This document shows positions 36,478-46,679 of a stretch of 64,000 nt of DNA, piece after piece. Each line of letters opens with the position of its first letter. Position 1 is the stretch's first letter. Source of the DNA: Chlamydiota bacterium (GTDB taxonomy: Bacteria > Chlamydiota > Chlamydiia > Chlamydiales > SM23-39); contig JBCAXK010000001.1 in the NCBI GenBank assembly GCA_038534095.1, positions 20,446-84,445 of the forward strand, written 5' to 3'. The notes below the pieces were generated by a model, which saw only the letters and a program-made list of their open reading frames with translations, searched no databases and had not been told where the DNA came from. The position numbers and the translations under genes were made by a program.

Positions 36478-37323
36478 TCAACAGGAATGTCTCGAAAAGA
36501 TTACGTGAACTATGCGCTCATCAGTCGTTGTACTACGTTGAGCCTGCGGCGAAGAAGGTATTCCGTATTCAGTCCTAGACGGAGAACTGGAAACCAGCTT
36601 CAACTGAGGTGCGACGTATTGAGCACCAGGTTGAGGATTGAGAGCCAATGCCAAAGGAATTGTAGAATGTCCAGCGATAGGTTGAGGATTTGGAGGCAGT
36701 GTCAACTGATGTGTAGGATATTGAGTCATACCCTGAGTACACGGACATTGAGAGGTGGGATGTTGAGCGATAGGTTGACGATTGGAATTAGATCCTAAAA
36801 GATCGGGATCAGGTTCTAACTCAGGCATTTCATCGTAATTTTCCTCGGTAGAGAGGAGGGCTGTATTTTGCTGCTTTTGAGTAGTAACTAGACTCTTCGA
36901 AGCTCTAGGATCAGCTTCTAAAGCAGACATGCCATGGGATTTTTGCGTGGAAGGAACTGAGGATGTTTTTTCCTCCTGTTTATTAGTCGTTGGATCGGTT
37001 CTTGTCCGTTTGTTGGGTTGTTCTTCGCTTTTTGAAACACCTGATTGCTTGTTTGCGAAGTAGGCTTCTGTACCATCAGACAAGCGGAACGACCGTTTTT
37101 TTATTATTAAGGCAGGGCGGTATCGGTGTAAGCCGAAATGTAGAATTGTTTCTATTTTTCGAGCTTGTCTTAACATCTCCGGATTTGTGGGTCCGTGCAG
37201 TGCCGATGCGATGTCTAGATCAGAATCTTTCGCTAGATTAGTCGGAACACTCATGGGCATAGTCTCTCTAGGAGTAGTTTGGTAATAATTTGTATTGAGA
37301 TGGATAGGGGGGGTGGAACTCAT
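36478..37323 (-). CDS. Disordered Pro/Gln/Ser-rich hypothetical protein (candidate effector)
   Basis: Start MSSTPP; NKRTRTD basic motif; degenerate NPQP repeats; upstream region homologous to that of the 43434 gene. Confidence 0.8.
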   Translation of the reverse strand: MSSTPPIHLNTNYYQTTPRETMPMSVPTNLAKDSDLDIASALHGPTNPEMLRQARKIETILHFGLHRYRPALIIKKRSFRLSDGTEAYFANKQSGVSKSEEQPNKRTRTDPTTNKQEEKTSSVPSTQKSHGMSALEADPRASKSLVTTQKQQNTALLSTEENYDEMPELEPDPDLLGSNSNRQPIAQHPTSQCPCTQGMTQYPTHQLTLPPNPQPIAGHSTIPLALALNPQPGAQYVAPQLKLVSSSPSRTEYGIPSSPQAQRSTTTDERIVHVIFSRHSC

Positions 37324-37395
37324 TGCACTGTAATTGTTGATTTTTATGAGAATGATCATAGCATCTAGTCAAAGTTATTTTCTAAAGTTTTTTAT
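37319..37395 (-). promoter_or_regulatory. Shared upstream module, copy 1 (extended -10 TGcTATGAT)
   Basis: About 62/79 aligned columns identical to 43347-43424. Confidence 0.75.
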
Positions 37396-37673
37396 TGGCG
37401 TAAAATATTAAAATAATTCTTCCAGATGACATTTCCGTAAAAACATTGTTTCTTCTGGTGAGATCGTTATTTTTAGTGAAGACTAAATTTCTAACACAAC
37501 GCTTAGCCATAAAAACATTGTTTAGAAGAGTTTGTGTATGACAGCAAAAAAATGCCCCAATAGATGCGAGAAAAAAAATCCTTTAAAGAGCCTAGAAGAG
37601 AAACTCTAGGCCGTTTTTTTCTTACTATGGTATGCTTCCTTAGAAACCTTTGGAAAATTCTTAGAATACATTT

Positions 37674-43424: not shown

Positions 43425-43433
43425 CATAACGTA

Positions 43434-46400
43434 ATGAGCTCTATCCCCCCTTTCCGTACACCTCCTTATCAAAATCAAAGCATGGACGTTTCCACTGCTG
43501 ATAGTCCTGCTCATGAAAGTGAGGAACAAGCTTCTATGCATGTTTCGTCCAACATGGTAGACGATGCTACGCTAGGCCTTACAGAAGAGGGGCCCTTCTT
43601 TGACTCTGTTTGTACGAACAATAACAACCCTTCGTCAACTCGAATGAAACTGGGAAACCCTACAGATTACGTAACCGTAAGACAAACAGCTAGAGAGATC
43701 GAGCAGGAAAGAGCCTATAGAAGAGAAGCTTTATTGGAAGAACAAAGGCGACTTGCTATTCCGAGAAACAATCCGTCAATGAGAGAAGAATTAAAAGGTT
43801 GGCCATCAAAAATTCTAGAACGTGTTGGCAGATCTATTGGTGGAGATTCTTCTATTTCGGAAACAGAGGGGAAGCTCTTAAAACAGAGACGAACAGATTC
43901 GGAAGATACTAAACTGCAAAATAGATCCTTGGATTTTCTTCAGCAAGGATCCGACCCCATAACGACTTTAGCAGAGGAGAAGCTCTCAAAACGGAGACGA
44001 ACAGATTCGGGAGATACTAAACTGCAAGATAGATCCTTAGGCTTGCTTCAGCAAGGATCCGATCCCATAACGGCTTTAGCAACCGATTTCAAAGCTCCAG
44101 CCATGCCGGCTCCTAATCCTCATCCCACAACTCCACACACGCCGACTAGCTATCTTGATCCTATATACTTAGTATATGATCAGGCCAGGGTCTGCGTAAA
44201 ATACAACAAGCCTATTACTGAATTTTCCAAGTGCTTAGAAAATATGGTTCGCGGAAATCCACAAGTATTACATAAAGATCATCCGTCTAACTATTACGGA
44301 GCATTATTGGACTTAGCTGCAACAAATAGAAACAGTCAATACCTTGAAAAGCTTCTAGAGAAAGGAGCTAATCCAAATACAAAACTCTATCCATACACCC
44401 GAGATACTCTTCTTACTCTAAGTTTGAAAAAGGCAGATAGCACCGCAACCGCTTGCCTGCTTCTCGAACATGGGGCTCAGCTAATGTACCCTGATTTAAA
44501 AGATGTGGATATTTTTTCACGTGGATATTCGCAAAAGCTACGTAAAAAAATAGTTACGAGGATAAAAGAAGGCAGTAAGAGGCTCGAAAAGATGCCAGCA
44601 AACAGCAGGGATATTAACCTTGAGAAACTGTACTTAAAAGTTTTTCGCGACTGCACCTGGTTCTTACTGTATCATGTGTATAGTCAATTTTATCGGCATG
44701 CTCCACTCGCTCTTAGCTCAAGAAGCCGTGTTTTGCAGGAAGACCTTGATGAGATTCAAGAAACGATCAAGTTATTCTTAGAACTGATCTCCCTGGCAGG
44801 GATATATCATCCATTTGCCACCTACTATCACGAAATTAAGCCTAAGAAAGCTGATTCTAAGAAGCCAGTTGCGCGCAAAATAGCGGCCCCTCCACTGCCT
44901 GCTAAATTGCAAGAGCTCAGGCTGGGTTTGTGGCTAATGAATAGAGCGCCTAATTTCCATACGTTGCATCAAAAGACTTCTATGCACGCTACAATGGCCC
45001 AACCTAGCATGGAAATCGATGAGAACTTAGAAAAAGCTCTTTATGAAAGGATGTGGGAAGCATTAAATAAGTTATGTTCTAGCCATAAGATTTCTTTGGA
45101 GATGTACACCAAAGCATTGAAGGTGGCCTATAAGAGCTTTCTGAATAATGAATACATAAACTTAAAAATACTACCTTTTAGCATCCTTCCGGAAGTATTA
45201 CAAAAAATCTCAGACATCTTCCCCAAAAGTGATAGTCCCGTTAATCCCAATAATCCCGCTCGTGTGTTGAAAATGATATTGAATACGATTGTAAAGGACA
45301 ACCCGCCTGCATCTAATTTTGTGCTATGGATTGAAGAATTTACTAAGACTTTCCAATCTAACCTAGCAAAACATCCAGCTCATCTGCAGAAAGTCGAAAA
45401 AGTTATCGCAAACAGGGTGCATAATACCTTAACAAGGGAATTTTACAATTTCGATCTATTGTTAGGAATCAAGATTATTAGGAGCCTATCAACTCTTGAC
45501 ACACGCAGCAAAGATGACATAATTATTCAGATAGAGAGGCGGTTTTTCAATGATTACTCTGGTTTCCTTGAAGCTAAGCGGATCACTTCCGATCGAGAAC
45601 CTTTACCCATATTCCTTCAGCATAACAGTCCAGGTCGTGAAGAACACTTTTCTGCCCTCTTCTTGAATTTAACCTTCTCACATTTTCCCGCCAGATACTT
45701 CAATACAATCTTTGCAAATCTGCCCACTGCAGAAAACCTCCTTACAACTCTTAAGTTTTCAAAAGAGGATCTTAAACCTCTTGAGGCTTCAAGAAAGACC
45801 TCTTCATCAAAAAAATCCGTTAAGACTTCAAGAAAAGAGATCACTGTAAAAGACCTCCTAATAAAACAATTCCATCCTATCGTTTTTATACGCCATTTTT
45901 GGAAAACCCATTACATGGAACAGGTTGCTGCTAGAAGAGATCGAACTTTAGGCATAACACAAAACGAAGAGCGCCTAGAAAAAGAGACCTTGTATCTTGA
46001 AGAAAAAATTTTTAAGCATCTATCTGCTTGTTTTAAGGGAATCTCAAAGTTCCGCTCAGATGTCGGAATAAATCGTGTACAAAGGGTCAATGTTCATACC
46101 GGAGGGAATACTTTTTGGAAAAAATCTGTTTCGTGTCCGTTTTCTTTTTACTACTCAAGCTGTTTGCTGCTTGCCAATTATATTGATCAAAAAACATTGC
46201 GCTCCTGGTTGTTTAAAAAATGGGAGTCTCTATCAGATAGACGAAAAAATCAATCCCAACATCAAATATTTATGAGTGAATTTTTAAAAAAAAATGGTGA
46301 TCTCATCAAGTATCAAACAGTGATTGAACAATCAACTGGCTTGGGCAATTCCAATATCAGTAGAATACTCGCAAAAATCATCACAAGTTACTTGGTTTTC

Positions 46401-46679
46401 GCTTACAGTCCGTCATTACAAGAAAAGCTGCGCCCGATCGATTTTAGCTCCCTAAAAAACCTGCCCCGAGAAGCGCAAGTTTTACGTCGCTATTTGTTCT
46501 ATCCAAAGCTCTCTTTAAAAACAAAGTCCGATCAAACAAAGATGGATCAAGAAGACAGTAAAGTGATCACTCTCACGAATTTTCACCAAACTTATATTGA
46601 CACAGTTTTCATTCCACAGTACAAGGAATGGAAAGCATCACAGAGATCTTATCCCAATACAACCACTTTTGCTCATTAA
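43434..46679 (+). CDS. Large orphan protein with disordered N-terminus, 36-aa tandem repeat and ankyrin-like repeats (candidate effector)
   Basis: Start MSSIPP; LLDLAA...LEKLLEKGANPN and TLLTLSL...CLLLEHGA ankyrin-like segments. Confidence 0.85.
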   Translation: MSSIPPFRTPPYQNQSMDVSTADSPAHESEEQASMHVSSNMVDDATLGLTEEGPFFDSVCTNNNNPSSTRMKLGNPTDYVTVRQTAREIEQERAYRREALLEEQRRLAIPRNNPSMREELKGWPSKILERVGRSIGGDSSISETEGKLLKQRRTDSEDTKLQNRSLDFLQQGSDPITTLAEEKLSKRRRTDSGDTKLQDRSLGLLQQGSDPITALATDFKAPAMPAPNPHPTTPHTPTSYLDPIYLVYDQARVCVKYNKPITEFSKCLENMVRGNPQVLHKDHPSNYYGALLDLAATNRNSQYLEKLLEKGANPNTKLYPYTRDTLLTLSLKKADSTATACLLLEHGAQLMYPDLKDVDIFSRGYSQKLRKKIVTRIKEGSKRLEKMPANSRDINLEKLYLKVFRDCTWFLLYHVYSQFYRHAPLALSSRSRVLQEDLDEIQETIKLFLELISLAGIYHPFATYYHEIKPKKADSKKPVARKIAAPPLPAKLQELRLGLWLMNRAPNFHTLHQKTSMHATMAQPSMEIDENLEKALYERMWEALNKLCSSHKISLEMYTKALKVAYKSFLNNEYINLKILPFSILPEVLQKISDIFPKSDSPVNPNNPARVLKMILNTIVKDNPPASNFVLWIEEFTKTFQSNLAKHPAHLQKVEKVIANRVHNTLTREFYNFDLLLGIKIIRSLSTLDTRSKDDIIIQIERRFFNDYSGFLEAKRITSDREPLPIFLQHNSPGREEHFSALFLNLTFSHFPARYFNTIFANLPTAENLLTTLKFSKEDLKPLEASRKTSSSKKSVKTSRKEITVKDLLIKQFHPIVFIRHFWKTHYMEQVAARRDRTLGITQNEERLEKETLYLEEKIFKHLSACFKGISKFRSDVGINRVQRVNVHTGGNTFWKKSVSCPFSFYYSSCLLLANYIDQKTLRSWLFKKWESLSDRRKNQSQHQIFMSEFLKKNGDLIKYQTVIEQSTGLGNSNISRILAKIITSYLVFAYSPSLQEKLRPIDFSSLKNLPREAQVLRRYLFYPKLSLKTKSDQTKMDQEDSKVITLTNFHQTYIDTVFIPQYKEWKASQRSYPNTTTFAH
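43865..44080 (+). repeat. Two-copy 108-bp in-frame tandem repeat
   Basis: 43865-43972 and 43973-44080 encode EGKLLKQRRTDSEDTKLQNRSLDFLQQGSDPITTLA / EEKLSKRRRTDSGDTKLQDRSLGLLQQGSDPITALA. Confidence 0.95.

Follow-up and report, generated by a model that had tools for sequence, protein, structure and literature searches.

The stretch of DNA analysed here, hereafter the window, comprises 64,000 nucleotides (nt) from a Chlamydiota bacterium (assembly GCA_038534095.1, contig JBCAXK010000001.1, positions 20,446 to 84,445 of the forward strand), and the coordinates given below are those of the window. The genome contains 1,615,270 bases in 87 contigs and has a G+C content of 43%. Two genes of the window, designated A and B, are the subject of this analysis. 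They are found in divergent orientation, pointing apart, on either side of four housekeeping genes, namely miaB, ligA, a gene for a hypothetical protein of 312 amino acids (aa) and a gene for an mtaB-like methylthiotransferase. Each of the two genes is preceded by a short stretch of similar DNA, referred to below as the cassette, and begins with a related N-terminal region, referred to as the N-module, and the remaining parts of the two proteins differ. The features of the two loci are the following:

36478–37323, minus strand: gene A, an open reading frame (ORF) of 281 aa with one homolog, P0002
36478–36768, minus strand: Pro/Gln-rich tail of A, about 95 aa (P 15%, Q 11%)
36769–37323, minus strand: N-module of A, approximately residues 1–185, with an S/T/P-rich start, a KRTRTD motif and two 'E-x-D-P' patches
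37324–37393, minus strand: cassette of A, a conserved non-coding stretch of 70 nt with homology to the region upstream of B
43350–43433, plus strand: cassette of B, 84 nt, with homology to the region upstream of A
43434–46679, plus strand: gene B, 1081 aa, with an A-like N-module and a payload resembling a gene found on another contig (C16) of this genome
43434–44117, plus strand: N-module of B, approximately residues 1–228
44121–46676, plus strand: payload of B, residues 230–1081, paralogous to the C16 gene
44286–44507, plus strand: ankyrin-like repeats of B, residues 285–358, about two repeats
43372–46880, plus strand: segment of 3509 nt absent from the sister strain X2, consisting of the right two thirds of the B cassette, the complete gene B and a further 200 nt

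A repeat search revealed that the regions upstream of A and B form an inverted pair (37319–37393 and 43350–43424) of 75 nt with 76% identity. Genome-wide, the two regions are reciprocal best non-self matches (76.9% over 78 nt, E-value 1.4 × 10−9; 78.5% over 65 nt, E-value 6.9 × 10−7), and the next-best genome matches to either of them have E-values of 0.016 or worse. The Smith–Waterman score of the pair is 57; 2000 dinucleotide shuffles gave a mean score of 18.7 and a maximum of 33, and none of them reached the observed score. The original prediction, in which the two regions had been aligned by hand and a comparison with shuffled DNA had been proposed as the check, was thus borne out in both respects. 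On the evidence of the sequences, the upstream regions and leaders of A and B are confirmed to be homologous by descent.

The similarity extends upstream as far as 37393 in A and 43350 in B; within the coding region, it dies away about 27 nt from the start. A global alignment with ATG placed on ATG has 71 identical positions out of 97 and a single 14-nt gap in A, with identities of 52/70 in the upstream part and 19/27 in the first 27 coding nucleotides. The homology of the two starts had been proposed correctly, but the proposed register, in which the ATG of A was paired with an upstream ATG of B at 43420, did not stand; the latter opens merely a 4-codon mini-ORF, and the better register is the one in which A is without 14 nt. 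This 14-nt indel, which distinguishes A from both B and X2, is not a multiple of three and lies between conserved stretches, and the frame of B is open further upstream but contains no start codon there. Thus, the cassette is non-coding, and the true start of A is the MSS codon rather than the upstream ATG at 37359 picked by gene callers. The gene caller's version of A (P0001) begins at that ATG, which lies inside the −10 element.

The cassette of A contains a 22-nt A/T-rich block, a −35-like TAGAAA (37384–37379), an extended −10 element TGcTATGAT (37363–37355) and a short leader. The same A/T-rich block is found in the cassette of B, where a TAGAAA (43359–43364) and an extended −10-like TGcTATAAG (43380–43388) can be read from the sequence, so that the −10-like element announced for both upstream regions is indeed present. 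In A, the promoter scan returned TAGAAA-18-TATGAT preceded by TG. The leader is short and A-rich, and has no visible Shine–Dalgarno sequence. The leader of B also holds the mini-ORF mentioned above (43420–43434), the stop codon of which overlaps the ATG of B (TAATG). No RNA structure was detected in the leaders (z-scores of −0.35, −0.41, +0.35 and −1.63), and the Rfam search produced no match at gathering score in the window, with one match at E 0.5 elsewhere in 34900–37700. A structured cis-regulatory RNA leader, considered as a candidate, was rejected based on these z-scores and the lack of an Rfam match.

The proteins start with MSSTPP (A) and MSSIPP (B), as originally read. When A and B are compared directly by BLASTP, the best match (E-value 0.035; 14 of 43 residues identical) covers the KRTRTD/KRRRTD patch. 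Among 5.8 billion clustered proteins a single homolog of A was found, the 314-aa protein P0002 (38% identity, 93% coverage, E-value 2.2 × 10−29). P0002 matches residues 14–221 of B with an E-value of 4 × 10−7 (BLASTP), and a profile built from A and P0002 matches residues 4–134 of B with an hhalign probability of 87.8% and an E-value of 3.3 × 10−6. Based on these matches, the N-modules of A and B are homologous but old. Accordingly, the earlier claim of a shared protein N-terminus holds as regards homology, while the direct match between A and B is weak and becomes significant only through P0002. Following the first nine codons, the amino acid identity of the two modules is 29%. A motif K-[R/Q]-x-R-T-[D/E] is common to A, B and P0002, and P0002 retains a helix-like stretch that is lost from A and still present in B. 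In B, a 108-nt tandem duplication (43864–44079, 90% identical) doubles the K[Q/R]RRTD...SDPIT unit, and the basic motif therefore occurs twice.

The cassette together with the first nine codons is 74–78% identical between A and B, compared with 47% at the nucleotide level for the rest of the N-module and 41% at its third codon positions, where 26% would be expected at random. This difference indicates that something besides the protein is under selection, and in the plain reading of the sequences this would be a shared promoter, operator or translation-start context.

Downstream of the N-modules, the two C-termini are different, in agreement with the original prediction: A continues as Pro/Gln repeats, and B as ankyrin-like repeats plus about 700 aa without known family. 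The tail of A includes 51-nt Pro/Gln-rich repeats at 36628–36729. It is kept in P0002, the last residues included, which argues that A is a real gene and not debris. The tail shows no homology to B by BLASTP, and no relatives of it were found besides P0002. Pfam contains no family for A, P0002, the C16 paralog or a 92-aa ORF located beyond the 3′ end of A, and no usable match for A was obtained in the ESM Atlas.

An exhaustive HMMER pass with B over 1.84 billion representatives returned seven proteins at E ≤0.001, namely B itself, P0004 and five others. The latter match residues 285–358 of B (E-values from 1.1 × 10−8 to 5.7 × 10−4), and all five carry Pfam Ank domains. On B itself, the Pfam Ank model PF00023 scores 12.4 bits (E 0.22), below its gathering score of 21.1 bits, and nothing was found above the Pfam cut-offs in the approximately 850 residues that follow the N-module. 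The best E-values in a PDB sequence search with B were 0.19 and 0.55. [quoted passage not shown] The AlphaFold2 model of the payload, built from a two-row alignment, is unusable (mean predicted local distance difference test score, 33.4; predicted template modelling score, 0.25).

P0004 corresponds to a gene of 912 aa that is located on C16, another contig of this genome (G000:C16:2729-5464). Its relationship to the payload of B is seen by tblastn (24.5% identity over 469 aa; E-value 3 × 10−19), by HMMER (E-value 9.3 × 10−10) and in a MAFFT alignment (26% identity over the whole payload). The N-terminus of the C16 protein is different from that of B and contains coiled-coil-like repeats. As the payload of B has a paralog with another N-terminus, B is a chimera in which a 5′ end of the A type is joined to a body of the C16 type, and real module shuffling has occurred. 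B was found in none of 40 relatives, and the C16 protein in none of 102 family genomes.

For comparison with a close relative, contigs of the sister strain X2, which originate from another study's run, were placed on the region at a threshold of 80% identity. The flanking parts show 111 differences in 2512 nt, 22 in 1089, 49 in 4153 and 27 in 1120, i.e., 95.6–98.8% identity. The body of A falls below 80% in X2, except for an island at 36775–36988, and the encoded protein (P0002) is 38% identical. The cassette segment 37320–37408 is still at least 80% identical, and beyond it, at 37408–37571, the identity is again below the threshold. The cassette of A is thus a conserved island within a hyper-diverged block. 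The length changes of A in X2 are in frame (+3 nt; 194 nt in place of 263 nt, which is 69 = 3 × 23 fewer). X2 carries a 14-nt insertion behind 37341, and these 14 nt are shared with B, which suggests that the deletion in A is recent and private. One of the X2 contigs and the contig of P0002 are of equal length (7120 nt). The N-terminal extension of P0002 matches the region upstream of A in two different frames, as expected if X2 has 14 extra nucleotides.

B is missing from X2: one X2 contig (12204 nt) joins 43371 to 46881 with one other letter between, and the left break lies inside the B cassette. No direct repeat was found at the junction beyond a 9-mer, which 147 of 1000 shuffles also reach. 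Since X2 still has 22 nt of the cassette at its left end, the simpler reading is that B was deleted there rather than inserted here. Hence, both A and B vary between close strains. In the more distant genome G001, which belongs to the same genus (ligA 63% identical), the spacing between rplM and miaB is 284 nt and the 2.7-kb stretch that holds A is missing. The gap between mtaB and marC contains a decayed insert in G001, and the two genes are adjacent in G004 and G012. These comparisons place A and B in insertions that are specific to the lineage and that flank the conserved block of miaB, ligA, the hypothetical gene and mtaB. At the site corresponding to B, the decayed DNA of G001 (G001:C9, ~13880–14220) includes a transposase-like fragment with a 'PYSP' motif, presumably of the IS630 type.

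No third copy of the cassette was found in the genome, either at the DNA or at the protein level. Of the 103 family genomes searched, only the genome under study contains the module, the other 102 being negative. A profile search restricted to near lengths (A2; 5055 candidates) recovered P0001 and P0002 only, and one directed at longer proteins (A3; 7999 candidates) recovered no new member. The pattern search of metagenome contigs gave 173 matches, none of which was confirmed, and the exact DNA pattern occurs ten times in public contigs (six metagenome, four genome), all of them non-chlamydial and encoding no relative. These ten are chance matches in unrelated bacteria. For the conserved core, a 13-mer, no enrichment was seen genome-wide (14 matches with at most one mismatch, compared with 5–14 in five simulated genomes). 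The proposed search of the genome and its relatives for further copies of the module therefore added nothing to A, B and the single A ortholog, and the ideas of an effector family, of a mobile cassette and of a co-regulated set of genes were not borne out. Terminal inverted repeats of an insertion sequence or of a miniature inverted-repeat transposable element were rejected as well, as there are two copies only and the segment that they enclose is a housekeeping block with conserved synteny. A third, weakly similar sequence at 35964–35997 (plus strand; 34 nt, 76%) resembles the cassette in its left half; it has no −10 part, is not significant genome-wide (E 2.3), and adjoins the 92-aa ORF at its start, in opposite orientation.

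The first 25 residues of A and of B have an S/T/P/N/Q fraction of 0.60, which corresponds to the 99.5th percentile of 951 crude ORFs, and acidic fractions of 0.04 and 0.08, respectively. According to a published study (PMC2669295), S/T/P enrichment and acidic depletion discriminate type III signals, the chlamydial ones included, and predictors of the EffectiveT3 type have sizeable false-positive rates; a low leucine content and the lack of a signal peptide are further criteria. As the N-terminal composition of A and B matches the published signals, it is consistent with type III secretion of both proteins. The maximum 19-residue Kyte–Doolittle hydrophobicity is 0.54 for A and 1.18 for B; a chlamydial inclusion membrane (Inc) protein, which would possess a bilobed hydrophobic domain of about 40–60 residues, was considered for both and rejected, no window exceeding 1.6. 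A match to SctV/FHIPEP (731 bits), taken as the mark of a non-flagellar T3SS, is encoded on contig C13, FHIPEP being a family that also covers the flagellar FlhA, and six matches to TLC-type nucleotide transporters were found in the genome. This combination fits an obligate intracellular chlamydia. In host cells, the KRxRT[D/E] motif may direct the proteins to the nucleus.

Taken together, the explanation that we hold to be probable, with considerable reserve, is that A and B are partial paralogs with a shared cassette and N-module, that B is a fusion, and that common control, secretion and a nuclear signal can be predicted for the pair. A non-coding cassette of about 84 nt would have been inherited by both genes, A having since lost 14 nt. 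It would consist of a sigma-70-type extended −10 promoter, with the 22-nt A/T-rich block immediately before it, and of a short leader lacking structure, and it would be followed by the inherited first codons MSS[T/I]PP and a low-complexity N-module of about 190–225 residues with the K-R-x-R-T-D/E basic motif. In B, an A-type 5′ end would have been fused to a C16-type body of about two ankyrin-like repeats and a helical part of about 700 residues. Through the cassette, transcription and translation of A and B would be controlled alike; the ~25 S/T/P-rich residues at the start would direct type III secretion, and import into the host-cell nucleus may depend on the basic motif.

Several points weigh against this explanation. 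The direct protein similarity between A and B is weak (E 0.035), and the bridge between them depends on one sequence, P0002. The putative promoter is a consensus match of a kind that is not enriched in the region (15 observed, 20.3 expected), and no RNA runs covering the region are listed. As evidence of secretion, the composition percentile is a crude heuristic that stands in for a trained secretion predictor, and SctV is the only T3SS component that was searched for. The KRxRT[D/E] motif fits the pattern of nuclear localisation signals of the monopartite type, and basic motifs of such short length occur frequently. The choice of a deletion in X2 over an insertion in the present genome is made by parsimony, and the order of events cannot be rooted, since no outgroup carries any of the three modules.

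The alternative that survives best, although we regard it as unlikely, accepts the same anatomy but holds that the two proteins are not type III substrates and act inside the bacterium or on its surface, the cassette providing shared regulation. In its favour, both proteins are without a family assignment and their secretion is predicted from sequence features; moreover, S/T/P-rich disordered N-termini occur in non-secreted proteins too, and predictors of the EffectiveT3 type yield sizeable rates of false positives (PMC2669295). However, the ankyrin-like repeats, the strain-level presence or absence and the extreme divergence fit host-directed effectors better, neither protein has a signal peptide or membrane segments, and a T3SS core gene is present.

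A more far-reaching version, to which we attach rather little credence, would regard the cassette and the first codons as a selected 'address label' that stays nearly fixed while the coding part changes much more quickly than the remaining genome does (38% protein identity between strains with flanks 96–99% identical). Such a label might have a dual role, acting as a signal for regulation, translation or mRNA-level secretion of a few host-directed proteins, and as a homology anchor for swapping, fusing (as in B) or losing (as with B in X2) effector bodies.

An improbable alternative is that the identity of the cassettes was produced by gene conversion between inverted copies 6 kb apart, and not by selection. 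The inverted repeats do lie on the same replicon, and after about 27 coding nucleotides there is an abrupt fall in identity, as there would be at a tract boundary. However, at 74–76% identity with evenly scattered mismatches, the conversion would have to be old. In X2, the cassette of A is kept in a block that is otherwise below 80% on both sides, while the B cassette there is two-thirds deleted and offers no donor for that part. The 14 nt that the X2 copy shares with B again indicate that the deletion in A is recent and private.

We consider it very improbable that A arose by duplication of the 5′ part of B and is now truncated and decaying (or that B is an extended A), the tail of A being out-of-frame or formerly non-coding sequence and no fusion of modules having taken place. 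A is short, its tail is of low complexity and its 'recognition' value in the Atlas is low. On the other hand, the tail is conserved in P0002 to the last residues and the length changes between strains are multiples of three; the paralog of the B payload carries another N-terminus, and tblastn of A finds nothing in the body of B.

Finally, the A/T-rich region, the inverted copies and the apparent transposase remnant at the G001 site (with its presumed motif) might point to chance similarity of the 75 nt or to terminal inverted repeats of a mobile element, but hardly any weight is left to this idea, given 0 of 2000 shuffles and an E-value of 1 × 10−9 against the real genome, no other copies, a housekeeping block between the arms that is syntenic in three of the four relatives examined, and ten exact public matches that are non-chlamydial and encode no relative.

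The explanation by shared cassette, shared N-module and fusion has a counterpart in the terminal reassortment of type III effectors, reportedly described by Stavrinides, Ma and Guttman in 2006 (PLoS Pathog 2:e104) and cited in PMC6460904. As in that process, unrelated C-termini share an N-region resembling a secretion signal together with the upstream DNA, and the C-terminal part of at least one partner has a relative with another N-terminus, here the C16 protein for B. Judged as chimeric effectors, A and B thus have the shared upstream and N-terminal regions with unrelated C-termini, and a relative with another N-terminus is found for B only. The present case differs in that it concerns two genes in one genome of an environmental chlamydia and no regulon motif of the hrp-box type. 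Furthermore, the shared part is about 200 residues long, old (~25–30% identity) and of low complexity, the leader is better kept than the protein, and the secretion of A and B is a prediction. The chimeric effector families of Pseudomonas syringae have the same outcome as A and B, but they are large and experimentally validated (PMC6460904), whereas the members of the A/B set are candidates.

Environmental chlamydiae and Legionella possess expanded families of eukaryotic-like repeats, among them the ankyrin-repeat effectors of intracellular bacteria. Similar to these, B has ankyrin-like repeats behind an N-terminus that resembles a secretion signal, in an obligate intracellular bacterium; in contrast, it has only about two weak repeats, below the Pfam cut-off, and its other ~700 residues have no known family or usable fold model. 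With nucleomodulins, A and B would share an effector-like protein and a short basic K-R-x-R motif, presumably of the nuclear localisation type. They differ in that no sequence similarity to any nucleomodulin was found and nuclear import of A and B is a prediction. Bacterial nucleomodulins include the chlamydial proteins NUE and SINC (PMC7819608, PMC4436835).

No chlamydial case was apparent in a literature search on terminal reassortment in chlamydiae. The A/B pair is a small, lineage-restricted chlamydial example of a known mechanism, and its distinctive trait is that the leader is kept while the genes diverge or vanish between close strains. The effectors of environmental chlamydiae are mostly orphan proteins beyond recognition by homology. 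Here, a conserved leader and N-module mark two orphan genes, with a third linked through the payload of B, which offers a way to find and group effectors. If the explanation is true, effector repertoires of chlamydiae would be built by shuffling of 5′ ends, as in plant and enteric pathogens. The strain comparison marks A and B as loci of fast turnover, a trait typical of genes for host interaction. These findings are narrow in scope and cover one lineage, two genes and the evidence of their sequences.

Of the genes between A and B, three have the following positions:

37674–39023: miaB
38998–41007: ligA
41933–43198: mtaB-like methylthiotransferase gene

miaB and the mtaB-like gene encode paralogous radical-SAM methylthiotransferases, each located beside one of the cassette genes in divergent orientation, which results in a mirror-symmetric layout. 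An inverted match between them (37795–37823 and 43055–43083; 29 nt, 86%) lies inside the conserved N-terminal domain. The layout is probably a coincidence, because the genes are arranged identically in relatives that have neither A nor B.

A direct repeat of about 290 nt with 80% identity (35241–35528 and 36110–36396) occurs only at these two places genome-wide, one copy just downstream of A and the other just upstream of rplM. The two copies flank the 92-aa ORF (35677–35955, minus strand), which has no Pfam family. The repeat is missing at the syntenic loci of G001, G004 and G012, and it has no Rfam match. The copies differ from each other by an indel of 1 nt, and X2 shows indels of +1, +1, +1, +4 and −2 within or beside the repeats; as these are not triplets, the repeats are likely to be non-coding. 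When the inserted DNA (34994–36477, 46680–47050 and 37324–37673) was compared with the genome by tblastx, the cassette and this local pair of repeats were all that was detected.

Among the TLC matches, one outside the window (G000:C6:55881-56927) contains an in-frame TAG and begins at position 142 of the profile, so that the copy may be broken or cut by a contig edge. Elsewhere in the window, a 1563-aa protein with RHS repeats (PF05593, E-value 7 × 10−49) is encoded at 26083–30774 on the minus strand. Three consecutive plus-strand ORFs of 455, 561 and 159 aa (11762–13129, 13312–14997 and 15282–15761) are without a Pfam family and may represent further lineage-specific genes. The ORF at 55886–57571 on the minus strand encodes a protein similar to type-II NADH dehydrogenase (Pyr_redox_2, NDH2_C), to which a C-terminal cyclic-nucleotide-binding domain is fused.

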